In this document: positions 1 to 62,100 of the stretch, in pieces
Layout of the letters: each line of letters opens with the position of its first letter
Numbering within the stretch: position 1 is the first letter of the stretch
NCBI GenBank assembly: GCA_934162205.1
Contig: CAKPIA010000002.1
Span: forward strand, 100,494-164,493
Direction: 5' to 3'
Length of the DNA stretch: 64,000 bases
Source: an uncultured Clostridia bacterium
GTDB lineage: Bacteria; Bacillota; Clostridia; TANB77; CAG-508
Notes under the pieces: model-generated
What the model was told of the DNA's origin: nothing
Seen by the model: the letters and a program-made list of their open reading frames with translations, nothing else
Databases searched by the model: none
Position numbers and translations under genes: made by a program

Positions 1-824
1 AAGAAATTTTAAGTAGAACTGTTTTGCAAGAACCAACAAAACAAATAGTTCAGGTTGGAACATCTGAATTTTTAAAAAAATATAATGTACATATTGGTGA
101 TAAGATGTATGTATTGTCACCAGCTAAGTTGAAAAAAGAAACAAAGGAAAATTCAGAAGATGTATGTGAAGTTCCACAAAATTTAGATGTTAAATTGTTA
201 GATATAGGAAAGAATTGGGCAAAAGTTTCATATAACGAATATGAAGGTTTTATAAAAAATGACATTCTCACATCAGCTACTGTAAATCCAGAGATAGCAG
301 AAACTTGCAGAATTTTTAGGATTAAGGAAAAACTTGATATAAATATGGAATTAAACAAACCAAGTGGTTTAACTTTGGAAGATTATAAAAAGGTTTTATC
401 AAATAATTCAAGTGATAAAAATAAAATTTTTGAAGAAAATGCAGAAGTTTTTTACAATATAGAAAATAAATATAATATAAATGGAGTTTTTCTTGCTGCA
501 ATGGGAATACATGAAAGCGGATGGGGAAATTCTGTAATTGCACAGACTAAAAAGAATTTATTTGGTTATGGTGCATATGATAGAGACCCATATGGATATT
601 CTTATGGATTTGATACATATGAAGACTGTATAGAAACAGTTGCAAAAGCATTAGTTAAATTTTATATTAATGAATCTGGTACAGAAATTTATGATGGAGA
701 AACAGCTAAAGGATCATATTATAATGGACCAACATTATCAGGAATAAATACAAGATATGCAAGTGATAAAGAATGGTATAATAAAGTTTTTTCAAAAATG
801 GAAGATTTATATAATAAATTATAA
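1..824 (+). CDS. Cell-wall hydrolase, 5' partial: SH3-like N-terminal region plus mannosyl-glycoprotein endo-beta-N-acetylglucosaminidase (glucosaminidase) domain
   Basis: The frame stays open back to window position 1, so the gene starts upstream. Glucosaminidase signature FLAAMGIHESGWGNS is present, with Tyr/Gly-rich catalytic-region motifs (YGAYDRDPYGYSYGF). Confidence 0.65.
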   Translation, partial: EILSRTVLQEPTKQIVQVGTSEFLKKYNVHIGDKMYVLSPAKLKKETKENSEDVCEVPQNLDVKLLDIGKNWAKVSYNEYEGFIKNDILTSATVNPEIAETCRIFRIKEKLDINMELNKPSGLTLEDYKKVLSNNSSDKNKIFEENAEVFYNIENKYNINGVFLAAMGIHESGWGNSVIAQTKKNLFGYGAYDRDPYGYSYGFDTYEDCIETVAKALVKFYINESGTEIYDGETAKGSYYNGPTLSGINTRYASDKEWYNKVFSKMEDLYNKL

Positions 825-835
825 TGGGAGATAAA

Positions 836-1654
836 ATGTTTAATAAGTTGTTAAAAAATAAATATTTTCCTAAAGTTTTAGTTTTAATATTTATTATCTT
901 GGTTATAGTTATAATTAGTATTATATACAAAAATTGTTTAAGAAGTAGTTTTGCAAAAAAGGTGTCTAAAATTGCAGAGGAAAACGAAAATTCAATTTTT
1001 ACTATAGAAAAGGTATTGATGTATAGTAGTGCAGGAATAAATAATAATGAAAATAAAAATTTAGAGGATTTAGAAATTTGTCAATATACTGATTTAGCAA
1101 TATATATAAATAACAAAAATTATATAAAAGAGATTAATGAAAAAAATACAGTAAGTAAATTATATATAGATAATATTAAAATTGAGAGTGACTCTAACAA
1201 AGGAGAAAAAAATATAAATTATAAAAATATTTTAGACTTTGGGAAATTTAAAATGTTAGATAATGCTGAGAGAATTGATTTTAATATTATAAGGACGAAT
1301 GAAGAAAATGTAGAAAATAATTATTCAAATCCAAGTTTTTATACAGATTGTAGTAACCCATTATCTTTAGGCTATGTTAATAAAAATCTAGCTAAATATA
1401 GTGCTACTCAAAATGATAATGTTGTTTATTATGATGGGAAGGTTTTAAAAAATGCAAAGATTAATTTGAATGACATAAATTATAATATTAGTTTTAAAAT
1501 TCATATAATAAATAATATTAACGAAGAGTTTGTATATGATGCAAAAATAAATGATGTGTTAAGTGAAAATGATAAAGCTATATATAATGGTTTTGTTGCT
1601 AAAATGAAAGTTAAGTTTGATGGGGGAAATTCTTTCTTTAAATTAGTTAAATAA
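836..1654 (+). CDS. Hypothetical membrane-anchored, Asn/Lys-rich protein
   Basis: ATG at 836 has RBS GGGAGATAAA; the ORF track starts at an earlier ATG (824). N-terminal hydrophobic anchor KVLVLIFIILVIVIISII. No recognisable domain. Confidence 0.45.
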   Translation: MFNKLLKNKYFPKVLVLIFIILVIVIISIIYKNCLRSSFAKKVSKIAEENENSIFTIEKVLMYSSAGINNNENKNLEDLEICQYTDLAIYINNKNYIKEINEKNTVSKLYIDNIKIESDSNKGEKNINYKNILDFGKFKMLDNAERIDFNIIRTNEENVENNYSNPSFYTDCSNPLSLGYVNKNLAKYSATQNDNVVYYDGKVLKNAKINLNDINYNISFKIHIINNINEEFVYDAKINDVLSENDKAIYNGFVAKMKVKFDGGNSFFKLVK

Positions 1655-1723
1655 AATTAAATTAATTTAAAATATTTTATATATAAAATATTTTAAAAAT
1701 TTGTGAAGATTAAAAGTATAAAA

Positions 1724-1757
1724 AAGAGAAAATATTGATATTTCAATATTTTCTCTT
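1724..1757. terminator. Perfect inverted repeat followed by a T-run; bidirectional terminator between the 836-1654 gene and the minus-strand tRNA cluster
   Basis: aagagaaaatattga-tat-ttcaatattttctctttttt. Confidence 0.6.
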
Positions 1758-1762
1758 TTTTA

Positions 1763-1837
1763 TGGAGGCGACACCCGGATTCGAACCGGGGATCAGAGTT
1801 TTGCAGACTCGTGCCTTAGCCACTTGGCTATGTCGCC
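1763..1837 (-). tRNA. tRNA-Cys (GCA)
   Basis: The reverse complement folds as a cloverleaf: acceptor GGCGACA / TGTCGCC, anticodon loop CTGCAAA, T-loop TTCGAAT, 3' CCA encoded. Confidence 0.85.
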
Positions 1838-1906
1838 GTATAAAATTACTACAATGTTATCGTATACTGACGCTGTAATTCGCTTCGCTCAAACAGCCTC
1901 AACAAC

Positions 1907-1947
1907 TTGGCTATGTCGCCGTATAAAATTACTACAATGTTATCATA
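1907..1947 (-). repeat. Direct duplicate of tRNA-Cys spacer plus first 15 nt of tRNA-Cys; degenerate pseudo-tRNA-Cys
   Basis: 41 nt (cttggctatgtcgccgtataaaattactacaatgttatc) are identical to 1822-1862. Downstream the D-arm-like sequence GCCAAGTTGTTGAGGC diverges from the real tRNA. Confidence 0.6.
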
Positions 1948-1958
1948 TACTGATGCTT

Positions 1959-2034
1959 TGGAGCGGGAAACGGGGCTCAAACCCGCGACCTCTGCCTTGG
2001 CAAGGCAGCGCTCTATCAACTGAGCTATTCCCGC
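1959..2034 (-). tRNA. tRNA-Gly (GCC)
   Basis: Reverse complement GCGGGAATAGCTCAGTTGATAGAGCGCTGCCTTGCCAAGGCAGAGGTCGCGGGTTTGAGCCCCGTTTCCCGCTCCA. Anticodon loop TTGCCAA, CCA encoded. Position 19 is A and position 56 is T where G19:C56 is expected. Confidence 0.8.
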
Positions 2035-2082
2035 AATTGTTATTATTTAGCTTTATTATAATAACAAAATTCTTAATTAATG

Positions 2083-3357
2083 TCAAGTGTTTATAAACTG
2101 TTTTTGAAATATATTTTCTAAATAGGCTATATAATTGAATGATATATATTTAAAATAGTTTAACGGATTTTTTTTCTTTATATTAATTGTATTCATTATA
2201 TCTAAATTTATTACTTTTTTATTATTAATATTAACTGTTAATTCACCAATTTTTTTATTTTCTTTTATTGGTGCTTCTAGTTCTTTATTACAGTTAATTT
2301 CTATATTTATTGCATTAACTTCATTATTTCTAATTGGAATTATTTCATTTTCAATATTGGAAAGAGATAATTCTATTTTGTTAGGTATTCCTTTTTTTAT
2401 AGTGAATTTTGATAAGTTTTTTAACTTCCAGTTTTCAAATTTTGAATCAATAATTTTTTTTATGTTTATATGTTGATAATTATTAAATGTATATTCTATT
2501 AATTTTATACTATCTTGTGTTCTGAATTTTTTTGTATCTGCACCTAAAACTATGCATATAATGTCTAAGTCATTTCTTTTGCAAGCAGTAACTAAACATC
2601 TATTGGCACCATTTGTAAATCCTGTTTTTACACCATATACACCATTTAAAGTTCCTAATAGTTCATTTGTATTTGATAAATTTTTAGAATTTCCGTTTAT
2701 AGTTACAGTATAATTTTTTGTATTAACAATTTGGGCAAATACTTTATTTTTTAAAGCATAATCAGTAAGAATAGCAAGTTCATAAGCTGTGGTATAATGA
2801 TCATCATTATCTAAACCATGAGGAGTTACGAAATGTGTGTTTATTAAATTTAGTTCTTGGGCTTTTTTATTCATTAAATCAGCAAAACCTTCTATACTAC
2901 CACCTACATGTTCTGCTAATGCAACAGCAGCATCATTTCCTGAACATAACATTAGTCCATATAGAAGATCATGAACACTAATTTTATCTCCTGTTTTTAA
3001 TCCAAGTCTTGATCCTCCTGTTCCTGCTGATTTTTTAGAAACTTCTACTATGTCATTTATATTAGAATTTTCTAGTACAATAGTTGCTGTCATAATTTTT
3101 GTTGTAGATGCCATTTTTCTTTTTTCCTTTTCGTTTTTTCCATATAAAATAATCTTTGATTTTCTGTCTATAATAATTGCTGCTCTAGAATTTATTGTTG
3201 GTAGTTTAGATATATCAGAAGAAGTTTCTACTAATTCTTTTTGTATATTATCGATATTTACTTCTTCTGTATTTTCGTTATTTGCAAAAACGGTATGGGA
3301 TAGAAGGAATAGAGCGATTATACAGAAAAATAAAATATATCTTTTTTTTGATTTCAT
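2083..3357 (-). CDS. D-alanyl-D-alanine carboxypeptidase (serine-type, PBP5/DacF-like) with C-terminal domain
   Basis: Signal peptide present. SxxK motif ASTTK, SGN motif (CSGND) and KTG motif (KTGFT) found in order. Confidence 0.85.
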   Translation of the reverse strand: MKSKKRYILFFCIIALFLLSHTVFANNENTEEVNIDNIQKELVETSSDISKLPTINSRAAIIIDRKSKIILYGKNEKEKRKMASTTKIMTATIVLENSNINDIVEVSKKSAGTGGSRLGLKTGDKISVHDLLYGLMLCSGNDAAVALAEHVGGSIEGFADLMNKKAQELNLINTHFVTPHGLDNDDHYTTAYELAILTDYALKNKVFAQIVNTKNYTVTINGNSKNLSNTNELLGTLNGVYGVKTGFTNGANRCLVTACKRNDLDIICIVLGADTKKFRTQDSIKLIEYTFNNYQHINIKKIIDSKFENWKLKNLSKFTIKKGIPNKIELSLSNIENEIIPIRNNEVNAINIEINCNKELEAPIKENKKIGELTVNINNKKVINLDIMNTINIKKKNPLNYFKYISFNYIAYLENIFQKQFINT

Positions 3358-3746
3358 ATTATATTCACCAATATATATATATGCTAATAAATTAAAAATA
3401 TGATTTGAATTTGGTGTTGATATATGTAAGTTTATAATATATTTAATGATTTACACATATAATAAAAAATTAGTATATAGAAAGTTTTATAAATAAAAAA
3501 ATAGACGTATTGAAAATTAGTAGATTTTAGTCACATAATTTTACGTAAACCCTTGATTTTGTAACGAAAATGTAATATAATTGTAATGTAGGACAGTAAT
3601 TTTGGTGAAATCTATTTCCGTAAAGGATTTAGAAGCAAAATATTACAAAGCCAGAATACTAGCAAATTATGGTATTGACTTATTTTTTTTAAGACTATAC
3701 AATTATTATAGACATAGTATAAATATAAAAAAAGGAAGGTTTAGAT

Positions 3747-6700
3747 ATGAAACTAAAAAAGATGTTTTTAATTTTAATAGGTGTTGTCATTATTAGTACA
3801 CTTTTTACAAACGTAAATGTTGCTAATGCTGCAAATGATACATTGCATGTAGGGTTGTCAAAAGTAATACCAGAAACAAGCAATGGATATGCAATATTAG
3901 ATCCAACAGTTTCTAGTGGAAACGGAAAGACTATTTGGAACTTAATTTCATATAAATCTGCTACAGGAACAGATTATTATGATTTTGCTACAACAAATAT
4001 GTATTGTTTAAAAGCTGGTGCTGGTTTTTATAATGCTGGTGGACAATCAGATCAAGCTGTAAGAAAAGATTATACTTCATTATGTGATTTGAGAGAAAAA
4101 GATAAAATGATTAATAGTACTCATACATATGTAAAAGAACTAGCAAATAGTGATAATTATTATAAAGTATTATATTTAGTTGATAATTTATATATAAAAG
4201 GAAAATCTACAAGTAAAGATATAGAAGCATTACTTCGTAAATCAGGAATATATAGTTCAGAATACATAAATGAAAATAAAGATGTTTTCCATGTTAATAG
4301 TGACCTTGATGAAGGTAAATATTATTACATATCTGATGGAGAATATGATTATTCTAGTTATGTTTATTATGGTTCATTAACAGAGGATGGATATTCACAT
4401 ATATTAACAGAAGAAGATATTGTAGCTGTACAACAATTAGCATTATGGCATTTTACAAATAATGGTACAGATTATGATAAATATTCTCAAAATAATATAG
4501 ATTGGTTAGAATATACAAAGGATAATGCAAACACATATAAAGCAATGGGTAGAGGAAGTTATGGATCAGCAGAAAATGATAGAGCTGAGCAAGCTGTAAT
4601 ATTGTATCACTACTTAATTGATTCAGCAGAGAAAAATGCAGCTAATTATAAAAATGATACAAATACAATAGGAAAACCAATCAGTACAAAATCTGCTAGT
4701 ACATTAAAAGCACAATTAATAGGTGATAGATATGTTGCAGGACCAATTAAATTAGATAAAGATAATGATTTAGTAAATGAGATAAAATTAGATATAACAG
4801 ATAATAATGGAAATGATGTTACTGATTATAGTTTTGTAGACAGCACAGGAAAGACATTAAATGAACAAACAATTTCTGAATTAATAGGAAAAGAGTTTTA
4901 TATATCTTTACCAAAGACATTAATAAATAAAATAAATATTAAATTTAATGTAAAATATGAAACAAAAAAAGCAACAATATATGTAGATAATACAACAAAT
5001 ATAGATCAACCAATAGTTGTACCTGAAATTGAAAATCAAGAATATGATATGCCATTTGTAGTGATTATAGAAGGAAAATTTGATTTAGCGTTAAGAAAAT
5101 ATATAACAAAAGTAGATGGAATAGAATTAAAGAGTACAAGTACAAGAATACCTAATATAGATACAGAAAATACATTAGATAAAGGTAAAGAAACAGCAGA
5201 TTATAAACATAAAAAAGATCCAGTTCAAATTAAAACTGGAAGTATAGTTACATATAATATTAGTGTATATAATGAAGGTGATAAAGATGGTTATGCAACA
5301 GAAGTAACAGATCAATTACCAACAGGATTAAAAAGTAATTTAAAAACAGGAGATGTAGTTACATCAACAAAAGGTAATACATATGTAGTAACATATGATG
5401 AAAAAACAAATAAAGTTATATTTAAATTAGACAAAACAAAAACAGTAAAAGGATTAAGTTCATATGTAACAGGAAAATTAGATAAAGATACAATAGAAAT
5501 TGAATGTACTGTTAGTTTACAGGCAACTTCAAAACAACAAATATTAACAAATGTTGCTTGGATAAGTGAAGAATATAATAAAATTGATGATTTAATAATA
5601 ACAAACCAAACTAAAGCGGATAGAGATTCAGAACCAGCAACTGTACCAAATGTAACTGCAGATAGTTTATTAACAGAAGAACAAGGATACAAAGGAAATG
5701 ACGCAAATAAAGATGATTTAACAGATTCAGAGTATTTTTATAAAGGAAAACAAGATGATGATGACTTTGAAAAATTAATATTATTACCAAAAACTTTTGA
5801 TTTAAAATTGGTTAAATATATAACAGCAATTAATGGAGATAAATCTAAAGGAAGAACAATTACAAGTGTAGATTCTAGTAAATTAAAATCAGGAGAAGAA
5901 ACAACAGCTGAATATACAGTAAGTAAAGATCCATTATTAGTAAGACATGGAAACTATGTAACATATACATTTAGAATATATAATGAAGGTGATTTAGATG
6001 GATATGCTTCTGAAATAACAGAGGATATTCCATATGGATTACAATTTGTATGGTCAAATGATATAGTAACAAATGCTGATGGAAAATTAAATTTTGATAA
6101 AGCTAAAGATTTATCAGAAGAAGATAAAAAGGCAATAGAATTTAACTCAAATTATTATTGGACTTTTAAAGATAGTGATATAAATAAAGATGGAAAAATA
6201 GAATTTGTTGAAAGTACTTATTTATCAAAAGAAACAGAAACAACTGAAAATGGAAACTTATTAAAAGCATTTGACAGCGCAAATGATGATGGAAAAGGAT
6301 CTGGATTATCATATAAAGAAATATCTATTATGTTAAAGGTTACTGCTCCAGATACTTATGATAAAATTATAAGAAATGAAGCTGAAATATCTAAATCAAC
6401 ATATAGTGATGGAAAAGAAGAAGCTAAAGATAGAGATTCAGATACTAAAAAATGGGTAAAATATGAAGATGATGAAGATTATGATAATATAAAATTACAA
6501 TATTTTGATTTAGCATTAAGAAAATTCATTACAGATATAAGTGGAAAAGCTGTTACATCAAGAATACCACAAGTAGAATATAAAGATGGAAAAATAACAT
6601 ATAAACATCCAAAAACTCCATTAGAAGTAGTTGTAGGTGATACAGTTACATATACAATTAGAGTATATAATGAAGGAAAATTAGATGGATATGCTTCTAA

Positions 6701-7742
6701 AGTAACAGATGATATACCAGAATATTTAGAGTATTTACCAGATGATAAAACAAACAAAGAATATAGATGGGTAATGATAGACAAAGATGGAAAAGAAACA
6801 ACAGATGTTTCTAAAGCAGTAAAAGTAACAACAGATTATTTATCAAAAGAACAAGAAGAAACAACAGGAAGAAAGAACTTATTAAAAGCATTTGATAGTA
6901 ATGCAAAAATAAGTGAAACAAATCCTGATTATAAGAACTTAAAAATAGCATTTAAAGTAAAAGATCCAAAATCTTCAGATTATATAATTACAAACCATGC
7001 ACAAATTTCAGATGATACTGATGAAGATGGAAATCCAATTGATGATATTGATTCAATACCAGATGAATGGAATGATGGTGAAGATGATCAAGATGTAGAA
7101 CATGTTAAAGTTCAATACTTTGACTTAGCTTTAAGAAAATGGGTAACACAAGCAATTGTTATAGAGAATGGAAAAGAAACTGTTACAAATACAGGACATA
7201 AAGCAGAAGATGACCCAGAAGAAATAGTAAAAGTAGATTTAGACAGAAAAAAATTATCTAATGTTGTAGTAAAATTTGTTTATAAAATAAGAGTAACAAA
7301 TGAAGGGGATATAGCTGGATATGCAAAAGAAATAACAGATTATGTTCCAAGTGGATTAAAATTTGTAGCAGAAGATAATAAAGGATGGACAGATGAAGGA
7401 AATAATGTAATATCTACAAGATTATTAGAAAATACATTATTACAACCAGGTGAAAGCGCAACAGTTGAAGTTACATTAACATGGATTAATGGTAAAGACA
7501 ACATGGGAGTAAAAGTAAATACAGCAGAAATATCAGAAGATTATAATGATAAGGGTGTTCCAGATAGAGATTCAACACCAGATAATAAAAAACCAGGAGA
7601 AGACGATATAGATGATGCACCTGTTATGATATCAATTAAATTAGGTGAATATACAATAGATACAATATACTTTGTATTAGGTGGAGCAGTACTTATCACA
7701 TTAGCAGGAGGAATAGTTCTAATTAAAAAATTTGTATTATAA
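3747..7742 (+). CDS. Large surface protein: signal peptide, N-terminal thioester domain (TED)-like region, four DUF11-type repeat domains, C-terminal TM anchor
   Basis: RBS GGAAGG. Cys87 in YCLKAGAGF and Gln230 in QQLALW (Q-x-A-phi-W) match the Cys/Gln thioester signature of Gram-positive TIE adhesins. Four repeats start FDLALRK(Y/F/W)(I/V)T and contain VTYT-x-(V/I)YNEGD-x-DGYA-x-E(V/I)TD-x-(L/I)P-x-GL. C-terminal helix IYFVLGGAVLITLAGGIVLIKKFVL. No LPXTG. Confidence 0.8.
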   Translation: MKLKKMFLILIGVVIISTLFTNVNVANAANDTLHVGLSKVIPETSNGYAILDPTVSSGNGKTIWNLISYKSATGTDYYDFATTNMYCLKAGAGFYNAGGQSDQAVRKDYTSLCDLREKDKMINSTHTYVKELANSDNYYKVLYLVDNLYIKGKSTSKDIEALLRKSGIYSSEYINENKDVFHVNSDLDEGKYYYISDGEYDYSSYVYYGSLTEDGYSHILTEEDIVAVQQLALWHFTNNGTDYDKYSQNNIDWLEYTKDNANTYKAMGRGSYGSAENDRAEQAVILYHYLIDSAEKNAANYKNDTNTIGKPISTKSASTLKAQLIGDRYVAGPIKLDKDNDLVNEIKLDITDNNGNDVTDYSFVDSTGKTLNEQTISELIGKEFYISLPKTLINKINIKFNVKYETKKATIYVDNTTNIDQPIVVPEIENQEYDMPFVVIIEGKFDLALRKYITKVDGIELKSTSTRIPNIDTENTLDKGKETADYKHKKDPVQIKTGSIVTYNISVYNEGDKDGYATEVTDQLPTGLKSNLKTGDVVTSTKGNTYVVTYDEKTNKVIFKLDKTKTVKGLSSYVTGKLDKDTIEIECTVSLQATSKQQILTNVAWISEEYNKIDDLIITNQTKADRDSEPATVPNVTADSLLTEEQGYKGNDANKDDLTDSEYFYKGKQDDDDFEKLILLPKTFDLKLVKYITAINGDKSKGRTITSVDSSKLKSGEETTAEYTVSKDPLLVRHGNYVTYTFRIYNEGDLDGYASEITEDIPYGLQFVWSNDIVTNADGKLNFDKAKDLSEEDKKAIEFNSNYYWTFKDSDINKDGKIEFVESTYLSKETETTENGNLLKAFDSANDDGKGSGLSYKEISIMLKVTAPDTYDKIIRNEAEISKSTYSDGKEEAKDRDSDTKKWVKYEDDEDYDNIKLQYFDLALRKFITDISGKAVTSRIPQVEYKDGKITYKHPKTPLEVVVGDTVTYTIRVYNEGKLDGYASKVTDDIPEYLEYLPDDKTNKEYRWVMIDKDGKETTDVSKAVKVTTDYLSKEQEETTGRKNLLKAFDSNAKISETNPDYKNLKIAFKVKDPKSSDYIITNHAQISDDTDEDGNPIDDIDSIPDEWNDGEDDQDVEHVKVQYFDLALRKWVTQAIVIENGKETVTNTGHKAEDDPEEIVKVDLDRKKLSNVVVKFVYKIRVTNEGDIAGYAKEITDYVPSGLKFVAEDNKGWTDEGNNVISTRLLENTLLQPGESATVEVTLTWINGKDNMGVKVNTAEISEDYNDKGVPDRDSTPDNKKPGEDDIDDAPVMISIKLGEYTIDTIYFVLGGAVLITLAGGIVLIKKFVL

Positions 7743-7755
7743 AATATAAATTTTA

Positions 7756-7788
7756 AAGAAGGAAGATTTTAAAATCTTCCTTCTTTTT
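7756..7788 (+). terminator. Rho-independent terminator after the surface-protein gene
   Basis: aaagaaggaagatttt aaaatcttccttcttttt. Confidence 0.65.
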
Positions 7789-7936: not shown

Positions 7937-8746
7937 ATGCTTGTTTTTGGAATAGTTTTAACTGGGACAGGTCTATATGCTTTAGTTAAAAAGAATAAAG
8001 AAACAGATAAAATTGAAATTCAAAAACCTGTAATAACAGTCGATAATAATGGTGATGATACAATATCAATTAATGTTAAACATAAAAAACAAATTAGTAA
8101 AGTAACTTATTCTTGGAATGGACAAAGTGAAGAGAGTATAGAAGGAGAAGGAAGGGCTTATATACAAAAAGTAATTGATATTCCAATAGGAACTAATAAT
8201 TTAAAAGTTACAGCAACAGATGTTGAAGGAACAGTTGCTGAATATGAAGGAAAATATGTTGCTGAAGAGGATCCTAAAATAACTATTGATTCTGAAGGAA
8301 CAAATATTAAGGCTAAAATTGAAGGAACAAATAAAATTTCATATATAACATATAGATGGGATGAAGAAGAGGAAAAAAGGGTAGAAGTTGGAGATACAAC
8401 ATATGAGCAAACTATTGAAATTCCTCAAGGGTTACATACATTAACAATGGTTGCAGTAGACATTAATAATAAAACTACAACAAAACAACAAAGTGTAAAA
8501 GGTGTTACAAAACCAAAACTTACTGTTACAACAGATGGTAAAAATTTTATTATAAATGCAAGTGATAAAGAAAAATTAGAAAAAATAGAATTTATACTTA
8601 ATGGACAAACATATAGAATTAATTTAGATCAAAAGAAATTTGAATATAAATATCCACTATCAGATGGAGAAAATCTAATAGAGGTTACAGTATATAATAC
8701 TGATGGATTAACAGCCGTATTTAAGGCCAAATGTACAAAACAGTAA
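7937..8746 (+). CDS. Membrane-anchored protein with three tandem ~75-aa Ig-like repeats; likely true start at 7849 in another frame (frameshift at A6 tract)
   Basis: N-terminal TM helix followed by three repeats. The ATG at 7937 has no RBS. A strong RBS AAAGAGGTGGG precedes the ATG at 7849, whose 17-codon ORF ends at 7902; deleting one A from the A6 run (7876-7881) fuses the two frames. Confidence 0.6.
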   Translation: MLVFGIVLTGTGLYALVKKNKETDKIEIQKPVITVDNNGDDTISINVKHKKQISKVTYSWNGQSEESIEGEGRAYIQKVIDIPIGTNNLKVTATDVEGTVAEYEGKYVAEEDPKITIDSEGTNIKAKIEGTNKISYITYRWDEEEEKRVEVGDTTYEQTIEIPQGLHTLTMVAVDINNKTTTKQQSVKGVTKPKLTVTTDGKNFIINASDKEKLEKIEFILNGQTYRINLDQKKFEYKYPLSDGENLIEVTVYNTDGLTAVFKAKCTKQ

Positions 8747-8812: not shown

Positions 8813-9628
8813 ATGGAAATAAATTTTTTAAATTTAGTAGCTTGTTTTATTATATATTCTTTTGCTGGATGGTTATTAGAATCAGTGTATAAAACAATTC
8901 TGCAAAGAAAATTAGTAAATAGTGGATTTTTAAATGGACCATTTTGCCCAATATATGGAATTGGTGCACTTATAATGATATTAGTATTAGGAGAATTTAA
9001 AAATAATATAATATTATTATTTGTTATGGCTTTTATTATTTTATCAATATGGGAATATATTGTTGGATTTTTATTAGAAAAGATATTTAAAACCAAGTAT
9101 TGGGATTACTCAAAATTGAAATTTAATATTAATGGAAGAGTATGTTTAAAAAATTCTATCTATTGGGGAATGCTAGGAGTAATATTTATAGATTTAATAA
9201 ATCCATTTATAAACAAAGAATTAGCATTAATTGATAATAAGATAATATTTTATACTTGTTTAATAATAGGGATATGTATGATTATAGATTGTATAATTAG
9301 TATAATAAGTATTGTACAAATTGATAATGCATTAAAATATATAGAAGAATTAAATGAGCAAATAAGAGATAAAATTGAAGAAGTAAAAATTATTACTAAA
9401 ACAATAGATAAATCAAAAGGAAGTATTCAATCTATTATAAATGAATTAAATAAAAAAAGAGAGAAATTTATTAAAAAATTATATAAAAGAATATACAGAT
9501 TAAAAAGAGCTTTCCCAACAATGGAATCTGAAAAAATTACAGAGCTTTTAAATAATAAATTAGAATTGAAAAATAGATTTAAGAAAAATAAAAAAATTGT
9601 AAAAAATAGTAAAAAGGACTTGAAATAA
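8813..9628 (+). CDS. Polytopic membrane protein with C-terminal Lys/Glu-rich coiled-coil tail (DUF1113-like, uncertain)
   Basis: RBS AGGGAG. Four to five predicted TM helices, then about 100 aa of charged coiled coil. Confidence 0.45.
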   Translation: MEINFLNLVACFIIYSFAGWLLESVYKTILQRKLVNSGFLNGPFCPIYGIGALIMILVLGEFKNNIILLFVMAFIILSIWEYIVGFLLEKIFKTKYWDYSKLKFNINGRVCLKNSIYWGMLGVIFIDLINPFINKELALIDNKIIFYTCLIIGICMIIDCIISIISIVQIDNALKYIEELNEQIRDKIEEVKIITKTIDKSKGSIQSIINELNKKREKFIKKLYKRIYRLKRAFPTMESEKITELLNNKLELKNRFKKNKKIVKNSKKDLK

Positions 9629-9670
9629 TTTATATTATATATATAATTAAGAAAAAAAGTGGAGGTAAAA

Positions 9671-10606
9671 ATGGTACAAGAAATATATATTATTGATGAT
9701 GATGATTCTTCTGTAGTTGTATTTAGAGAACTGTTTAAAAATGATAAAGAATATAAATTTATAAGTGTTAAATCTGAGCAAATAGATGTGGCTTTAAAAA
9801 ATATACCTTCATTAATTATAATTAATGAAGATGCTATAGATAGAGATGTTGTAGAATTGTGTAAACAAATTAGAAAAGATGAGGATAATACTATAACACC
9901 TGTAATTGTTGTTTCATCAAATACAGATAAAAATCATAGAATAAATATTTTAAAAGAATCAATAGAATATTATATAAAGAAACCAGTTGATGAAGAATAT
10001 TTATATTTTACAGTAAAAAACATAAACAGATTGCTTTCACTAAACAGAAGAATAAGTCCTCTTACAGGATTACCAGGAAATGTACAAATACATGCGGAAT
10101 TAAAAAAGAGATTGTTAAATAAAGAAAAATTTGATGTATTGTATATAGATTTAGATAATTTTAAAGCATATAATGATGTATATGGATTCTTAAAAGGTGA
10201 TGAAATAATTAAATTTACAGCAAGAACAATATTGGAATGTGTTCATAAAGATATAACTGAAAATTGTTTTGTTGGTCATATTGGTGGAGACGATTTTGTT
10301 GCTATAATTCCAAATATTGACTGCGAAAAAATATGCCAAGATATAATAGTAAATTTTGATAATAATGTTAAAAACTTTTTTACAGAAGAAGATGCAAAAA
10401 AAGGTTATATAGAAGTTGAAAATAGAAAAGGTATAATGGAAGAATTTCCATTAACCTCTGTATCTATAGGTGTTGTTATAGCTGATGAAAATAGATTTAA
10501 AAATATATTAGAAATTGGGGAGGTTGGAGCTCAAGTTAAACATGTTGCAAAATCTGTTGTTGGAAGTAGTTATGCTATTGACAGAAGAAAACAAAGTAGA
10601 AATTAA
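9671..10606 (+). CDS. Response regulator receiver domain fused to a GGDEF-family domain with variant GGDDF motif
   Basis: RBS GGAGG, then ATG at 9671; the ORF track's GTG at 9659 sits inside the RBS. GGDEF domain opens with SPLTGLPGN; the active-site motif reads HIGGDDFVAI. Confidence 0.75.
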   Translation: MVQEIYIIDDDDSSVVVFRELFKNDKEYKFISVKSEQIDVALKNIPSLIIINEDAIDRDVVELCKQIRKDEDNTITPVIVVSSNTDKNHRINILKESIEYYIKKPVDEEYLYFTVKNINRLLSLNRRISPLTGLPGNVQIHAELKKRLLNKEKFDVLYIDLDNFKAYNDVYGFLKGDEIIKFTARTILECVHKDITENCFVGHIGGDDFVAIIPNIDCEKICQDIIVNFDNNVKNFFTEEDAKKGYIEVENRKGIMEEFPLTSVSIGVVIADENRFKNILEIGEVGAQVKHVAKSVVGSSYAIDRRKQSRN

Positions 10607-34856: not shown

Positions 34857-37800
34857 ATGGAAAAAAAGGATGTTTATGAATTAACAAATCCACAAAAATC
34901 TATATGGAATACAGAATTGTTTTTCAGTAATACAACTGTAAATAATATATGCGTTTCAGGGATTATTAATGAAGAGGTTAATATAGAAATTTTGAAAAAA
35001 GCTATTAACTTGTTGGTTAAAGAAAATGATAGTTTTAGAACAAAATTAATAGTTAATGATAGTATACCAGTTCAATTTTTTAGTGAGTATATACCATTTG
35101 ATATTGATGTTACTAAAGTTGAAAATAAAAAAGAATTTAAGAAAATTGAACAACAAATGGTAGAAGAAAAATTTAATTTGATAAATTCTGAATTATATAA
35201 ATTTAAAATAGTAAAATTTCCTGATAATACTGCGGGAATTATTTTGAATGTTCATCATATGATTGCAGATTCTTGGTCATTGGGAATTACAATACAGGAA
35301 ATTGTAAAAATATATAAAACACTATTAGAAAATAAAGAATATATTTCAGATACTTTTTCTTATAAAAATTATATTGAGTCAGAAAGGGAATATAAAAATA
35401 GTAAGCGATTTGACAAAGATAAAGAATTCTGGAATGAGTATTTATCAGAAAATGTTGAACCTGTTTCAATTCCTTCTATAAATAGAAATATAGAAGTGAA
35501 ATCTTCTAATGGAAAAAGAACTTCATATGTATTAAAAAAAGATGTAATGAACAAAATTACAGAATTTTGCGAAAAAAATAAAATTTCAAATTATGTATTT
35601 TTTATGTCTGTTTTTTCAATATATATAGGAAATATGGCAAACACAGATAAATTCCTTTTAGGTACACCTATTTTAAATAGATTAAATTTCAAAGATAAAA
35701 AAACAGAGGGTATGTTTGTTACAACAGTACCTTTTAAAGTTGATATAGAAAATAATACATTTACAGAATTTGCTATAGATAACAATATTAATTTAATGTC
35801 TGTTTTAAGACATCAAAAATATTCATATACAGATATTATAGAAGATGTAAGAACAAAAAATCCTGACATTCCAAATCTTTATGATATTGCTATATCATAT
35901 CAAATAACAAAAGCAACTGCAGACGATATAGGAAATTATACAACAAATTGGACATTTAATAATAACTGTTTAAATGATATGAATATACATTTATATGATA
36001 TTAATGATACTGGAGAACTTAAAGTAGATTATGATTTCTTAACAGATAAATATTCAGAAAAAGAGATAGAAAATGGGCACAATAGAATTATACATATAAT
36101 AGAGCAAATTATAGAAAATCCTGATATAAATGTTCAAGATATAGAAATTGTAACAAATGATGAAAAGGAACAAATTGTTAATAAATTTAATAATAGAAAA
36201 CTAAAATGTCCTTTTGATAAAAATATTATAGAAATCTTTGAAGAACAAGTGGTAAAAAATGAAGATGAGATAGCACTTGTTTATAAAGAAAATCAATTTA
36301 CTTATAAAGAATTAAATAAAATTGTTAATAAATTTGCTAGATTCTTAAAGGAACAAGGAATAAATAAAAATGATATTGTAGGAGTTTATATGAACAAAAA
36401 TTATTGGTTTATTATATCAATTCTTGCAATTCAAAAATTAGGTGCAGCATATACACCAATGCACCCAGAATATCCAGAAGAAAGAGTAAATTATATATTA
36501 AATGATTGTAATTCAAAAGTATTAATAACAGATCAAGAAATATCTAATAAAGAATATAAAATAATAAATCCAAATCAAATATCTTTGGATTCTTTTGAAG
36601 ATACGAATTTAAATGAAGAATTTGATAGTAATACTTTGTGTTACGTTATATATACATCAGGTTCTACAGGAAAACCAAAAGGTGTTATGCTTACACATAG
36701 AAACTTGATTAATTTTGTATATAACTTTAATGAAGGCTTCAATACAAAATTTTCAAGAAATGATAATTGTTTATCACTTACAAATATTTCATTTGATGTT
36801 AGTGTATGCGAAATCTTTACACCATTAACACTAGGGGCTACATTAGTTATTTATCCAGAAAATACCTTAACAGATATTCATATGTTATGTGATCTTATAG
36901 AAAAAGAAAAAATAACATTTTTATATCTTCCACCAAGTGTTTTAAAAGATGTATATGAATTTATAAAAACAAATAATTATAAGTTTTATGTAGAAAAAAT
37001 GCTTGTTGGAGTTGAAGCAATTAAGAACTTAGATCTTAATAATTTGCTTTCATTGAATAAAAATCTTGAAATAGTTAATGGGTATGGACCAACAGAAACA
37101 ACAATATGTTCTACATTTTATAAATATGAGTTTAATAAAAAGAATGATGAAATTGTACCTATTGGATATCCATTAAGAAATAACGACATATATATTGTAA
37201 ATAAATTTAATAATTTACAACCAGTAGGAATACCAGGAGAATTAATAATATCAGGAGATAGCGTTTCTTTAGGATATTTAAATAATCTTGAAAAGACAGA
37301 AGAGTCATTTAAAAAGATTTCTAAACTAAAAAATGATATTTTCTATAAAACTGGTGATATTTCATATTGGAATGAAAATGGTTTCTTAAATTTCATAGGC
37401 AGACAAGATTCTCAAATAAAGTTTAGAGGACATAGAATTGAATTAAATGAAATAAATAATAATATAAAAATGATAAAAGGAGTTACAAATAGTATTACAA
37501 TATTAAAAAATATTAATGAAATACCATGTATTTGTAGTTATTTATCAAATGATGACAATATTATAACAGAGGATTATGTTAAAATTAAATTAAATGAAAT
37601 TTTACCATATTATATGATTCCAACACATGTAGTTTGTATGGAACAATTACCAATTAATAAAAGCGGAAAAGTAGATAAAAATTTATTGCCGGAAGTTTCT
37701 ATAACATCATTAAAATTTGTTGAAGCTTCTACATTAACGGAAATCAAAGTACATCAAATTTTATGCAAATTATTAAATTTGAATAAGATTTCTGTAATTG

Positions 37801-40800
37801 ATAACTTGTTTGAGTTGGGCATGGATTCTTTAATTTGTATAAGATTTTCTTTAGAAATTTATAATAATTTTAATATAAATATTTCTATAAAAGATTTATT
37901 TAAATATAATACAATTCAAGAAATATCAAAATATATAGATGAGGCAGATACAGCTTATAAGAACGAAGATGTACATATATATCCAAAAGAATTTAGTTAT
38001 CCATTATCATCTGCACAAAAAAGAATATATTATGCAACAAAATCAGCGGGAGAAAATTCACTTTTATATAATGTAAGCGGTGGTCTTTTCATTAAAGAGT
38101 TTTTAGATGCTGAAAAAGTAAATAAAATTTTTAATATATTAGTAGAGAAAAATAGCTCTTTGCGTACTTATTTTAAAATTGACAATGGAGAGCCAAGACA
38201 ATTTGTAATGGATTCAATATCTGTAAAAATTAATACATATAAGAATAAAGATATAATTAGAAATAATATATCTACATTAATTAATGCTTTTCCTAAGTCT
38301 TTTGATTTAGAATTTGCACCATTATTAAGAGTGGAATTACATTATATAAAAGATGGAACTTTAATATTAGTTGATTCACATCATATTATATTGGATGGAA
38401 CTTCTTTAAATATATTATTAAAAGATTTTTGTTATCTATATAATAATGAAGAATATGCTTATAACAAAGAAATAGAATATAAAGATTATTCTATTTGGGA
38501 AGATAATCTAATTAATACTTCTAGTTTTGAAATTATTAGAAATTATTGGAAGGAACGTTTCGAAAATTTTGAAATACCAGTAATTAATTTACCGTATGAT
38601 TATGCAGTTGGAGAAAAGAGAACATTTAATGGAAATAAATTATATTTTAAAATAGATAAAAAATTGTTTGAAAAAACAGAAAGAATTTCTAAAAAATATA
38701 ATGTGTCTTTATATATGATGTTTTTAACAAACTTATACTTAATGCTTTATAAATATACAGGACAAAATAATATAATAATAGGATCACCAATAGAGGCAAG
38801 GAACTCTATAAAATTAAATGATATAATAGGAATGTTTGTTAATAATATTGCTTTAAACTTAAATATTTTAGATGATTACACTTTAGAAAATTTAATTAAA
38901 AAAGTAAAAAGTTTGGTTTTAGGTTCTTTAACCAACCAACCTTATCCTTATGAGATGTTATTGAAAGATTTAAATATTCCTTCAACAACTTCATTATTTG
39001 ATGTTGTATTTACATTTCAAAATAATACAAATATAAATAATAGAATAAATAATAAAGTGTTAGAACTAATACCATCAAATACTCATACATCTAAATTTAA
39101 TTTGACTTTTGAAATAGATCCATCAACATATAATTTAAATATTGAGTATAATACAGATTTGTTTAAAAAAGAAACTATATGTAGCTTTTATAATCATTAT
39201 ATATATTTATTAGAGAATTTTGTTAGAAATCTTAATACAAAAGTTTCGGAAATAGATATTATTACTAAAAAAGAAGACGAATTACTAGCAATATTTAATA
39301 AAACAGATGGAAAAATTAACAATGATACAGTTGTATCTATAATAGAAGAACAAGTAAAAAAACATCCTAATAATATAGCAGTAATTTGTGACGATAAAAC
39401 GCTAACTTACAGAGAGTTAAATGATAAAGCTAATAGTTTAGCTCATGTGTTAATAGAAAAGGGAATTCAACCTAATGATATTGTTTGTATTATGACAAAC
39501 CGTTCATTAGAGACGATTGTGTGTATGTTAGGAATATTAAAAGCAGGAGCAGCATTTTTAAATGTTGATCCTACATATCCAATAGATAGAACTAAATATT
39601 ATTTAGAAAATTCAAAGACACAATATGTATTAACACAAGCTTGTTTGAAAGAAAAAGTTAAAGAAATAGAAAATTGTATAGAAATTGACTTGGAAAATGA
39701 TTTGTATAATAAAAAATGTAAAAACCCAAATGTAAAAGTTCAACCAAATGATTTATCATATATTATATATACATCTGGTTCAACAGGAACACCAAAAGGT
39801 GTAATGCTTAATCAAGTTGGTTTCGCCAATATGGCAAAAGCTATGACTAAGGTTCTAGATTATTTAAAAGAGGGAAATAAGCATTGTTTAATATCAGTAA
39901 CATCAACTCCATTTGATATATTTGTATATGAAATAATTGTTTCATTAACTCATGGATTAAAAATATTAATGGCAAATAATGCTGAACATAGAAATCCAGT
40001 ATTATTAGATGCATTAATAAAAAAATATAATGGTGATGTTATGACTGTTACTCCAAGTCTTATGAAAATAAATTATGATAATAGGCTTCAACCATCTGCA
40101 CTTTCTAATGTAAAACATATGGTATTTGGAGGAGAACCTCTTCCAGAAAAATTTGTTAGTGATTTAAGAGAGCTTTCAGAAGGAGTTACAATATATAATA
40201 TTTATGGCCCAAGTGAAATTACCATTTTATCAAATGTTCAGAAACTTGAAAAAAATGACAAAATAACAGTAGGACCACCTATTATGAATACACAAATACA
40301 TATATTAGATAAATTTGGAAAAAGAGTTCCAATAGGTGTTGTTGGAGAAATATACATATCTGGTATTCAAGTAGGACGAGGTTATTTAGGAAAACCAGAA
40401 ATGACTAAAGAAAGATTTTTAGATAACCCATTTGGTGAAGGAAAAATGTATAAATCAGGAGATATTGGAAGATGGACCTTTGATGGTAAAGTTCAATGTT
40501 TAGGTAGAGTTGATCATCAAATAAAACTACGTGGACTAAGAATAGAATTAGGCGAAATTGAAAACAAAATGGAATCTATAAAAGGTGTAATTGCTAGTGT
40601 TGTCAACAAAGTAGAATATAATGGAAAAGAAGTGCTTTGTGGATATTATGTTTGTAACAAAGAAGAAGTAACAGAACAGATTGTAAAAGAATATCTAAGA
40701 AAAGAATTGCCATATTATATGGTTCCAACATATATAATGAAATTAAAGGAAATGCCATATACAATAAATAGAAAAATAGATAGAAAAGCATTACCATTAC

Positions 40801-42318: not shown

Positions 42319-44133
42319 ATGGAATTAATGACTTTTCCCTTTATATTGTTAATAATATCTACAATTACAATAACAGTTTTGGCTTTTTATATTTCAAATA
42401 AAAAGCCTCTAATGCAATTACAAAAATCATTTTTTGGAATATTAATATGTGTATTAGTTATATGTTATGGTGTACTTTTTCAGAGTATTTTTAACAAGAT
42501 ATTTAATATAGATCCTATTTATTTTGAATATATAATATATATTGGGACTTGTTTTTTACCAGTTACAATATTCTTAATGGCTACTATATTAAGAGATACA
42601 AAAATAAAATTAAGAAGATGGCACTTATTATTATTTATTGTTCCAATAATATCATTGTTTGTATTATGGACTAATTCTTTTCACCATTTATTTTATATAG
42701 AATATTCTGGTGATATGTCAAAGGTTGTATATGGTGCGTATTTTTATATTCATACAGCATATACATATATATTGTTGTTTATAAGTATGTATATTTTGCT
42801 TAAAAATTCATTCAAGACCTCTGGAATATTTTCTAAGCAATCAATATTATTTATTATAGGAACAAGTATACCAATATTAATAAATATACTAGGGACATTA
42901 AAAGTAATAAACATGAATGTATATATGACACCTATATCTTTTTCAATAACAGTAATATTTTATGCACTTGCAATTTTTAAATTTAACTTTTTAGGTGTTG
43001 CACCAATTGCTGTTCAAAAAATAGTAGATAAAATCTCAGACAGTTATCTTGTATTAAGTGAGGATGGAGCGATTACAGATTATAATAAAACATTTTTAAC
43101 AACATTTAAAATAAAAAGTGATAATTTAAGAGGAAAAGATTTTGTAGGATTCTTAAAAGAAAAGAAATTTTCAATTAATGAAAAAAGATTAAGACATTCA
43201 ATTGCAAAAGCGAAAGAAACAGAAAAAATAATATCTTATGAATCAGAAATAAAGAAAATTAATAAAATATTTATGGTAGAAATAAGTTCTATATCATCAA
43301 AAGGAACATTTTTAGGAATAGTAATTTTATTAAAAGATATAACACAACATAAGCACGATATACAAACAATAAGAGATAACCAGGAAACACTTATGGAAAA
43401 AGAAAGACTTGCTTCTCTTGGTCAATTAATTGGTGGTATAGCACATAACTTAAAAACACCTATAATGTCTATATCAGGAGCAGCAGAAGGATTACTAGAC
43501 TTAATTCAAGAATATGATAATTCTATAGAAGATCCTGAAGTTACACCACAAGATCATCATGAAATTGCATCAGATATGAGAGAATGGATTTCGAAAATAA
43601 AAGTTCATACAGCATATATGTCAGATGTAATTACAGCGGTTAAAGGACAAGCTGTTGCATTATCAGAAGATGAAATTGTAACATTTGATGTAGATGAATT
43701 AGTAAAACGTGTTAATATCTTAATGAAACATGAATTAAAAAATGCTATTATATATTTAAATGTAGATATGCAGGTAGACAGTAGTTTGACTATGAAGGGT
43801 GATGTTAATAATTTAGTTCAAGTTATTAATAATATGATATCAAACTCAATTCAAGCATATAATGGAAAACCAGAACAAAATATTGATATGATTTTAACTA
43901 AAAAAAATAATAATTTAGTTATTTCAATAAGAGATTATGCTGGAGGATTACCAGAAGTAGTTAAGAAAAAATTATTTAAAGAAATGATAACAACAAAAGG
44001 TAAAAATGGTACTGGACTTGGATTGTATATGTCTTATTCAAATATAAGAGCACATTTTAATGGAGATATTACAGTTGAAACTGAAGATGGTAAAGGTACA
44101 ACGTTTAATATAATTTTACCAATAGATAATTAA
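42319..44133 (+). CDS. Sensor histidine kinase: 7-TM N-terminal domain, PAS-like, HisKA, HATPase_c
   Basis: RBS AGAGGA overlaps the NRPS stop codon. H-box LASLGQLIGGIAHNLKTP; G-boxes GTGLGLY. Confidence 0.85.
   Translation: MELMTFPFILLIISTITITVLAFYISNKKPLMQLQKSFFGILICVLVICYGVLFQSIFNKIFNIDPIYFEYIIYIGTCFLPVTIFLMATILRDTKIKLRRWHLLLFIVPIISLFVLWTNSFHHLFYIEYSGDMSKVVYGAYFYIHTAYTYILLFISMYILLKNSFKTSGIFSKQSILFIIGTSIPILINILGTLKVINMNVYMTPISFSITVIFYALAIFKFNFLGVAPIAVQKIVDKISDSYLVLSEDGAITDYNKTFLTTFKIKSDNLRGKDFVGFLKEKKFSINEKRLRHSIAKAKETEKIISYESEIKKINKIFMVEISSISSKGTFLGIVILLKDITQHKHDIQTIRDNQETLMEKERLASLGQLIGGIAHNLKTPIMSISGAAEGLLDLIQEYDNSIEDPEVTPQDHHEIASDMREWISKIKVHTAYMSDVITAVKGQAVALSEDEIVTFDVDELVKRVNILMKHELKNAIIYLNVDMQVDSSLTMKGDVNNLVQVINNMISNSIQAYNGKPEQNIDMILTKKNNNLVISIRDYAGGLPEVVKKKLFKEMITTKGKNGTGLGLYMSYSNIRAHFNGDITVETEDGKGTTFNIILPIDN

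Positions 44134-62026: not shown

Positions 62027-62034
<8 letters not shown>
61980..62034. repeat. Right imperfect direct repeat (att-like) overlapping the tRNA-Gly(TCC) 3' end
   Basis: aaaataaaaacttacgaact...ccgtaagtt...tggagcgg; partner of 56282-56334. Confidence 0.65.

Positions 62035-62100
<66 letters not shown>

Follow-up and report, generated by a model that had tools for sequence, protein, structure and literature searches.

Could an uncultured Clostridia bacterium attach itself covalently to its targets and, if so, how is the adhesin held at the cell surface and which of its residues would form the reactive bond? The question is raised by a stretch of 64,000 nucleotides (hereafter the window; contig CAKPIA010000002.1, positions 100,494 to 164,493 of the forward strand), in which an uninterrupted open reading frame (ORF) of 1331 codons runs from ATG to stop at 3747..7742 on the + strand, the strand of all features of this gene given below. 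The ORF is present as an initial annotation had described it, and so are all of the motifs which that annotation had quoted from its translation. From homology, a fold match, residue conservation, domain architecture, and the absence of LPXTG, we infer that the 1331-residue product is probably a TIE-type surface adhesin: Cys87 and Gln421 would form an internal thioester through which a ligand is bound, putative isopeptide bonds would cross-link the stalk, and a C-terminal helix would act as a type I membrane anchor that is retained without cleavage.

Among bacterial adhesins, thioester adhesins are, to our knowledge, alone in binding their targets covalently, and the thioester domain (TED) has so far been studied mainly in Gram-positive pathogens. 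Through the present protein, a large, unannotated, divergent family of class II TEDs is placed in mammalian gut Clostridia that are uncultured and AT-rich. It differs from the known TIE proteins in its divergent sequence, its CLIPPER stalk, its longer loops with a Tyr/Asp-rich insertion, and its conserved C-terminal module, which is not of the LPXTG type.

Thioester domain

Residues 29-444 (3831..5078) are assigned to a class II TED from Pfam, an AlphaFold model, and Foldseek. The Pfam TED model (PF08341, gathering cut-off 22 bits) gives 13.1 bits on the full protein and 20.7 bits (E 5.5e-4) on the N-terminal 448 residues, where the whole model is spanned. When the protein is taken together with nine homologues, all ten aligned sequences match the model at E<=0.1, the best of them with E 1.1e-10, and two homologues (P0006 and P0010) carry PF08341 in their precomputed annotation. 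TQXA_dom (TIGR03934) matches residues 220-239 only (E 1.2e-3).

An AlphaFold2 model of residues 28-448, built from 17 sequences (pLDDT 74, pTM 0.73), shows N-terminal strands, a helical bundle, an all-beta segment, and a long terminal hairpin (residues 394-414/423-441), in that order. Class II TEDs are recognised by a beta-sandwich insert, some 75 residues long, that separates helix alpha3 from strand P, and by a long P-Q hairpin that returns to the upper lobe as a slipknot. In the model the segment after helix alpha3 is all-beta at about residues 312-414 (4680..4988), as is typical of the class II insert. A Foldseek search of the PDB with the model returned class II TEDs as the top four matches (6FWY, Enterococcus faecium TIE86, and 6FWV, Bacillus anthracis TIE; E 2.8e-8 to 8.2e-8, prob 1.00), while the fifth match reached only E 0.06 and no class I TED was among the significant fold matches.

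Several observations weigh against this assignment. The Pfam score stays below the gathering cut-off for the full protein and the N-domain alike, the confidence of the model is moderate, and the global TM-scores to 6FWY and 6FWV are low (0.25-0.36, with a root-mean-square deviation of 8-13 Å). The modelled N-domain contains a disordered insertion of 45 residues and two lobes of uncertain mutual orientation. In addition, no class II TED was found among PDB sequences by phmmer or by profile searches with the full length, with the N-domain (21 diverse members), or with the sandwich and hairpin, the last of which gave chance matches only, e.g. CRABP2. Overall, it appears from fold, motif, and family-level Pfam evidence that residues 29-444 form a divergent class II TED and that the protein belongs to the TED/TIE proteins. 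The family matches to the Pfam model and the fold match to 6FWY and 6FWV thus bear out the thioester-domain homology that had been proposed for the N-terminus.

The insertion, which is about 45 residues long and rich in Tyr, Asp, Gly, and Ser (residues 172-216, 4260..4394; …GKYYYISDGEYDYSSYVYYGSLTEDGY), was delimited by alignment and model. It lies between helices just ahead of the TQ-motif helix, is shared only by the closest relatives (P0001 and P0002), and has a model pLDDT <50; a role as a loop that faces the ligand is possible.

Stalk repeats

The thioester domain is followed by four repeats that start at residues 445, 684, 920, and 1125, with units of 239, 236, 205, and 207 residues, the last one including the anchor. 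Four stretches match Pfam DUF11 (PF01345; E 4e-25, 88.7 bits against a cut-off of 24.6) and likewise TIGR01451 (E 3e-20, 71.9 bits against a cut-off of 24). The four DUF11 repeats of about 200 residues described in the initial annotation are therefore present. Three of them begin with FDLALRK and the second one with FDLKLVK; a minor correction to that description is that the block VTYT..YNEGD.DGYA is degenerate in repeat 4 (FVYKIRVTNEGDIAGYA). Identity among the repeats is 31-35% at the amino acid level, which marks them as apparently old, and no relevant DNA-level tandem repeats were found in the adhesin gene.

DUF11 has been renamed CLIPPER, and the crystal structure 9IFR shows an intramolecular isopeptide bond with a Lys-Asp-Asn triad, although some DUF11 domains are without such a bond (PMC12617251). 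Putative triads can be assigned to all of the repeats of the present protein: K451/D522/N602 in repeat 1 (residues 445-683, 5079..5795), K690/E759/N877 in repeat 2 (residues 684-919, 5796..6503), K926/D988/N1083 in repeat 3 (residues 920-1124, 6504..7118), and K1131/D1198/N1258 in repeat 4 (residues 1125-1284, 7119..7598). Motifs that are invariant or nearly so in the repeats and their homologues comprise F-D-L-x-L-x-K, N-E-G, T-D/E-x-x-P-x-x-L, N-x-A-x-I-S/T, D-x-D-S, and an acidic E-D-D-x-D linker; all three of the K, D(E), and N triad motifs are kept in 374 of 406 family repeats. The AlphaFold2 model of repeat 4 is an Ig-like sandwich (pLDDT 89), for which Foldseek places 9IFR third in the PDB (E 1.7e-4) among generic E-set folds. 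At the sequence level 9IFR is the best PDB match of the repeat profile as well, though a non-significant one (E 0.16).

In the local alignment the repeat acid coincides with the D of LNDTLGQGL in 9IFR, whereas the Lys of 9IFR falls on another segment owing to a 30-residue insertion in the repeats; the assignment of the FDLALRK Lys therefore rests on the canonical DLxxxK motif. From these motifs it appears that each stalk repeat probably carries a Lys-Asn isopeptide cross-link, catalysed by Asp or Glu.

Proposed mechanism and targets

A course of events consistent with these domains can be outlined as follows. After Sec export and removal of the signal peptide, residues 29-444 would fold as a class II TED, whose terminal beta-hairpin would bring Cys87 and Gln421 together so that the internal thioester could form autocatalytically. 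Gln230 and Trp234 of the QQLALW helix would sit beside the bond. An amine of the ligand, typically of a lysine, would then attack the thioester and leave a covalent amide link. The four DUF11/CLIPPER Ig-like domains, joined by acidic EDDxD linkers, would serve as the stalk, and the transmembrane (TM) helix with its KKFVL tail would stay in the membrane according to the positive-inside rule, i.e. as a type I anchor with no sortase-made link to the wall.

The same chemistry might be directed at a microbe, the cell's own envelope, or dietary material, in aggregation, biofilm formation, or mating pairs, rather than at a host protein such as fibrinogen; we regard this as possible, though less likely than not. 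In Bacillus subtilis, a class II TED adhesin that has no sortase signal functions in conjugation (PMC8092201), the carriers of the present family are metagenome-assembled genomes (MAGs) of gut commensals and not of known pathogens, and a response-regulator diguanylate cyclase is encoded 2 kb downstream in the window and in close relatives. The gene itself, however, lies in a housekeeping chromosomal neighbourhood and in no conjugation operon. Among 15 alleles with 94.5-99.8% identity, all of which keep the key residues, the TED varies most, with residues 151-450 holding 47 of the 112 variable positions; this would fit a variable partner, without identifying it. Control of adhesin expression by cyclic di-GMP (c-di-GMP) is conceivable, but no c-di-GMP or other riboswitch was found in the 390-nt region upstream of the gene.

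C-terminal module

The C-terminus has a hydrophobic span and the positively charged tail KKFVL, and no LPXTG-like motif occurs in the protein, as had been noted; nor is there LPXTG, or any ORF with a sortase signature of the TLxTC type, elsewhere in the 64-kb window. To describe the end as a TM helix in place of LPXTG is thus literally true, but it understates what the family alignment shows. Residues 1285-1331 (7599..7739) form a conserved module, EDDIDDAPV-MISIKLG-EYTID-TM helix-KKFVL-COOH, with the helix at about residues 1306-1326 by hydropathy (7662-7724). The family pattern is 44-47 residues long and consists of EDDIDDAPV-x2-[ST]-[IV]-x-[T/L]-G, a TM helix, and LIKK[FY]V[LI]-COOH. After T-G there are three or four residues, a conserved Tyr, and the helix, in which one Gly and one Ile are invariant. 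Of 151 module-bearing members, 113 have EDDIDDAPV exactly, the fixed position reads TG in 136 and LG in 10 (including the present protein, with S-I-K-L-G), and the length is identical in 64 of 85 representative tails.

GTDB genomes, taken one per species, contain 522 stretches that encode relatives, and by the genome loci we mean the best 80 of them. All 62 complete genes of the genome loci have the module, and each of the ten long genes without it is cut off by a sequence end. When metagenomes were scanned with the tail motif as the only seed, 485 stretches were confirmed, and in the best 80 loci of that scan every complete tail-bearing ORF also has a signal peptide and a TED. Therefore, the module appears to be specific to the adhesin family in this sample, for which a general sorting signal common to diverse proteins is ruled out. 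Tail 'proteins' of 47-90 residues that came up in a tail-profile search were rejected as small proteins, being gene-call artefacts that start at an internal Met; the tail fragments reflect scaffold N-gaps in two close relatives (L082 and L083) and one in-frame TGA in a third (L081). In L081 the TGA at 7630-7632 stands for a Leu codon of the last FDLALRK and divides an otherwise uninterrupted gene of 1644 codons into a 1444-residue product without anchor and a 76-residue tail ORF; it could be either a real truncation, giving a released adhesin, or a sequencing error.

Is the module then a plain anchor, or is it cut? It could be a sorting signal that is cleaved at [ST]-[IV]-x-T-G by an unusual sortase, transpeptidase, or protease, with attachment to the wall or release as the result. 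The layout is tripartite, as in sortase substrates, with x-T-G (136/151), some 20 hydrophobic residues, and a KK tail, and a few members read S-P-A-T-G or P-x-T-G. However, no curated C-terminal sorting family reaches threshold on the family tails, and Pfam Gram_pos_anchor gives no match on the tail of the present protein. The nearest scores, which amount to a weak similarity to signal models of the sortase type, are 18.9 against 23.5 for Rumino_NPXTG (on the S-P-A-T-G variant), 13.5 against 15.9 for LPXTG_anchor, and 11.4 against 18.15 for srtB_target. The Thr of the scissile type is replaced by Leu not only in these 10 of 151 members but in all 15 listed alleles of the cluster of the present protein. 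The start of the module, EDDIDDAPVMISI, shares homology with the linker strand between repeats, EDDQDVEHVKVQY, and is therefore probably the last strand of the stalk, so that part of the 'motif' would be structural. The tail, moreover, is found only on the TED adhesin family.

Sortases exist in related MAG lineages, but of the 132 tail-bearing genes followed by 900 nt or more of sequence, a single one has a sortase gene close behind it. That single case is a Pfam-confirmed sortase at 1274-1957 of L159, 70 nt after the tail-bearing adhesin gene, and it counts against an uncleaved anchor. So does the degree of conservation: the fixed length, the invariant Gly and Ile of the helix, and x-T-G in 90% of members exceed the needs of a plain anchor and hint at recognition by some specific partner. 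In another locus (L046) a sortase is next to a cohesin protein whose sorting signal, LPKTGE, is canonical, and the TIE gene of the same locus keeps its own tail. Three divergent members (P0086, P0135, and P0152) have unrelated TM-plus-basic tails without x-T-G, and therefore membrane insertion appears to be the common denominator. As judged from these sequences, permanent membrane anchoring is favoured over cleavage, which we hold to be unlikely.

A previously undescribed, dedicated sorting or processing signal, read by a membrane enzyme of gut Clostridia (a non-canonical sortase, transpeptidase, or protease), is quite doubtful. If it were real, it would constitute a new protein-sorting system specific to a covalent adhesin family, and the T-to-L variant of the present protein would be an uncleavable, membrane-retained form. 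In any case, the conserved non-LPXTG module poses a well-defined question on surface-protein retention in gut Clostridia.

The sortase of L046 belongs to a cassette (151-5544) just upstream of the pair formed by the adhesin gene and a Peptidase_S11 gene. The cassette encodes a 1300-residue protein, the cohesin protein ending in LPKTGE and a TM helix, and the sortase; by our reading of the sequence, the 1300-residue protein has a dockerin-like C-terminal repeat, and two ORFs after the sortase look like serine recombinases.

Proposed thioester-forming residues

Cys87 (codon TGT, 4005..4007) is the predicted thioester Cys. It lies in MYCLKAG, a short beta-strand in the model, and YCLK (residues 86-89) conforms to [YFL]C-phi-zeta as defined in PMC6194298. 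Two other cysteines were rejected: Cys113 is not conserved in the alignment of homologues, and Cys587 falls outside the TED, in repeat 1. The thioester Cys and Gln are the only universally conserved residues of TEDs (Walden 2015, PMC4450167), and the bond-forming Gln of characterised members lies on a beta-strand near the end of the domain (PMC4450167, PMC6194298, PMC8092201). Known pairs are Cys88 and Gln292 in EfmTIE86 (domain 39-314), Cys296 and Gln467 in SaTIE (PMC6194298), and Cys68 and Gln256 in TIEpLS20 (PMC8092201).

Conservation was counted in 134 family representatives clustered at 50% identity. Cys87 is kept in 131 of them, Gln229 in 126, Gln230 in 131, and Trp234 in all 134, while Gln421 is found in 132 and the adjoining Pro422 in 134. 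Only Gln229, Gln230, and Gln421 are conserved among the ten Gln of residues 1-460. In 17 homologues of 27-67% identity, Cys87, Gln229, Gln230, and Trp234 are invariant. The motifs quoted in the initial annotation are thus no chance effect.

However, Gln230 belongs to QQLALW (Gln229-Trp234, 4431..4448), in which by alignment and model the helical TQxx(phi)W motif can be recognised, with Q standing in for T. This motif, formerly TQxA(I/V)W, adjoins the thioester, and its Gln and Trp are dispensable for the bond (PMC4450167, PMC6194298); the motif is not strictly required in TEDs at all (PMC4450167). When the PDB was searched with a profile of the N-domain from 21 diverse members, the sole stretch found was VTQLAIWYF of 5DCQ, a solved chain ('Fibronectin-binding protein'), with which VVQQLALWYFTN aligns.

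Gln421 (codon CAA, 5007..5009), in NIDQPIVV, is then the only other conserved candidate, and it stands at the expected position: at the tip of the predicted terminal hairpin and 23 residues before the first stalk repeat, as compared with 22 for Gln292 of EfmTIE86. Therefore, by elimination and position, Cys87 and Gln421 are the likely thioester pair. On the other side, DQPIV fits the published Gln motif loosely, and the PDB searches gave no residue-level match of Gln421 to a solved TED.

In the metagenome loci L124-L132 the TED lacks the class II beta-sandwich, and NTQPIILIER follows within about 20 residues of helix alpha3, just ahead of the first FDLALRK repeat. Their sequences suggest that a topology resembling that of class I occurs within this class II family, and since these loci keep the QP strand despite the loss of the beta-sandwich, the strand appears to belong to the TED core.

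It could be argued that the N-domain has the TED fold without a reactive thioester and is a non-covalent or purely structural head, a view to which the sub-threshold Pfam score, the loose fit of DQPIV, and the large disordered insertion would lend themselves. Cys87 and Gln421 are 98-99% conserved across the 50%-identity representatives, which share only about 25-30% identity overall. Such conservation is expected only under selection for chemistry, and an inactive head is therefore very improbable. As for a bond between Cys87 and Gln230, which the initial annotation had proposed and which has in its favour that both residues are near-invariant and that the TQXA_dom match touches the motif, it is scarcely credible, since the Gln of TQxx(phi)W is helical and dispensable in every characterised TED (PMC4450167, PMC6194298, PMC8092201), Gln230 aligns with that very Gln in 5DCQ and is helical in the AlphaFold2 model, and an invariant Gln-Pro (421-422) already occupies the expected position.

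The choice of Gln421 as partner of Cys87 has practical consequences, since it decides the mutants and the boundaries of a construct, which should span residues 29-444 and not 30-300. The shorter construct would lack the proposed bond-forming Gln and would falsely appear to refute the thioester idea. The distance between Cys87 and Gln230, for its part, cannot discriminate between the pairs because the Gln of the TQ motif sits beside the thioester anyway.

Comparison with known systems

The protein resembles BaTIE (6FWV), EfmTIE86 (6FWY), and SaTIE (PMC6194298) in the order of a signal peptide, an N-terminal TED, and an Ig-like cross-linked stalk, the cross-links being putative here, and it would resemble them in its mode of action too, as a head for covalent capture carried on such a stalk. 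The Cys of [YFL]C-phi-zeta has nearly the same position as in EfmTIE86 (Cys87 and Cys88), and a helical motif of the TQxx(phi)W type, a beta-sandwich that follows helix alpha3, and a conserved Gln (here the candidate Gln421) some 22 residues ahead of the domain end are likewise shared with class II TIEs. On the other hand, no sequence similarity to class II TIEs was detected by phmmer or profile search, the TQ motif has Gln for T, and the Gln motif reads xQP(I/V)V. Cys87 and Gln421 are 334 residues apart, compared with about 170-204 for the pair in class II TIEs, owing to longer loops and the 45-residue insertion. The stalk is DUF11/CLIPPER instead of CnaB, and the conserved TM module takes the place of LPXTG.

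TIEpLS20 (p34) of B. subtilis plasmid pLS20 is also a class II TED adhesin that has no sorting signal and is sortase-independent (PMC8092201), and is thus a precedent for class II TIE proteins of the non-LPXTG kind. It differs in that it has neither LPXTG nor a C-terminal TM segment, is encoded in a plasmid conjugation operon, and has a stalk of the Cna type, whereas the present gene is chromosomal and its product has the TM module and DUF11 repeats.

With CLIPPER of 9IFR, itself from the stalk of a fibrillar adhesin, the repeats share the candidate triad residues, namely the Lys of DLxLxK on strand A, the acid of (I/V)TDxxP, and the Asn of NxAxI(S/T). Two insertions, one of about 30 residues after strand A and a long one before the Asn strand, make them about 200-240 residues long compared with about 100-120, which doubles the length usual for DUF11; repeat 2 has Glu for the Asp of CLIPPER. 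TED is among the domains drawn in CLIPPER adhesins in a supplementary figure legend, so that the co-occurrence of TED and isopeptide domains has been noted (PMC12617251).

The C-terminal module is similar to sortase signals (TIGR01167/PF00746, NF033846, TIGR03063) in that a short motif with a final T-G leads into some 20 hydrophobic residues and then into a short basic tail at the extreme C-terminus. In contrast to them, Pro is missing from motif position 2 in most members, the present protein has Leu for Thr, the helix and the LIKK[FY]V[LI]-COOH tail are themselves conserved and of fixed length, and there is no consistent sortase neighbour.

Among the clostridia, Cpe0147 of Clostridium perfringens is a TED adhesin with an ester-bonded Ig stalk, and the TED adhesins of this species are sortase-anchored. 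They have in common with the present protein a clostridial origin, an N-terminal TED, and a repetitive Ig-like stalk with internal cross-links (putative here), but theirs are class I TEDs, the structure of the CpTIE TED being 5A0G (PMC4450167, PMC6194298), and their stalk has Thr-Gln ester bonds.

Family distribution

An exhaustive profile search gave 683 representatives (50%-identity clusters) at E<=1e-3 and 260 at E<=1e-30, many of them 1000-2900 residues long. The genome loci all belong to MAGs of uncultured Clostridium sp., Clostridia, or Bacillota from human, mouse, rabbit, and other guts, and the closest relative among them is only 53% identical to the window protein. Several metagenome contigs encode the exact protein. 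The cluster to which it belongs at 90% identity comprises 32 members, none of them named, and all 15 that are listed are 1331 residues long; precomputed Pfam annotation of the window protein gives CLIPPER only.

Several genomes appear more than once among the genome loci, and some loci have tandem copies. The size of the family, together with the presence of two or more copies in some genomes, suggests that covalent attachment may be widely used by commensals for colonisation. Two adhesin paralogues in tandem were seen in several genomes (L025, L027, L042, L043, L054, L065, L087, L123, L144, and L153), e.g. with 1306 and 1769 or 1511 and 2005 residues. The number of repeats ranges from 2 to 6, which suggests diversification of stalk length.

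Gene and genomic context

The adhesin gene is preceded by a promoter-like site, TTGACT-17-TACAAT (3675..3703), which is suggestive by position only, as such sites are no commoner than in shuffled sequence in the AT-rich region around the gene. A Shine-Dalgarno sequence, aggaagg (3733..3739), is read directly 7 nt before the ATG. By hydropathy, residues 1-28 (3747..3830) are a Sec signal peptide, with MKLKK, a hydrophobic core, and VANA/A; M1, K2, and K5 are kept in the aligned homologues, and signal peptidase would be expected to cut after VANA (...VANA|AN). A scan located an intrinsic-terminator-like hairpin 13 nt past the stop codon (7755..7786), with a 14-bp stem and a T run; 3 sites of this kind were found compared with 0.5 expected. 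The gene 3' of the adhesin gene has its own strong promoter-like site, and the adhesin gene therefore appears to be monocistronic.

The window has a G+C content of 25% and its context is chromosomal and of the Clostridia type. The neighbours include a GH73-type glucosaminidase, two tRNAs, a divergent PBP5-type DD-carboxypeptidase, an Ig-repeat membrane protein, a CmpB-like membrane protein, a response-regulator diguanylate cyclase, and a GH5 cellulase. The divergent neighbour (2083..3357 on the - strand) is a PBP5-type D-Ala-D-Ala carboxypeptidase (Peptidase_S11; Pfam E 7e-66). A Peptidase_S11 homologue occurs in 65 of the 80 genome loci, directly upstream and divergent in nearly all, and in the window and L081-L084 the gene is beside the adhesin gene with different flanks. 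Most genome loci share the housekeeping synteny fusA-tuf-plsX-acpP-S11-TIE-...-spo0A, and since the pair is embedded in this long synteny, the pairing may simply be inherited. A functional partnership of the carboxypeptidase with the adhesin is unsupported in view of that synteny and of the absence of S11 at some paralogous TIE loci.

Three downstream genes, at 7937-8746 (+), 8813-9628 (+), and 9659-10606 (+), are kept with the adhesin gene only in the close relatives L081-L084. They encode, respectively, a 269-residue Ig protein, a CmpB-family membrane protein, and the response-regulator GGDEF diguanylate cyclase. The first of these is anchored N-terminally and has three Ig-like repeats similar to Big_7/Glucodextran_B.

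Farther downstream, at 34857-42308 (+), a two-module non-ribosomal peptide synthetase of 2483 residues is encoded, with the order C-A-T-C-A-T and a terminal NAD-binding reductase domain, and its product may, judging by these domains, be of the dipeptide aldehyde type. A histidine kinase with seven TM segments and a PAS domain follows directly at 42319-44133 (+). Three tRNA genes lie at 1766-1837, 1962-2034, and 62030-62100, all on the - strand, and a listed ORF of 90 residues at 1824-2096, which overlaps two of them, is probably no gene.

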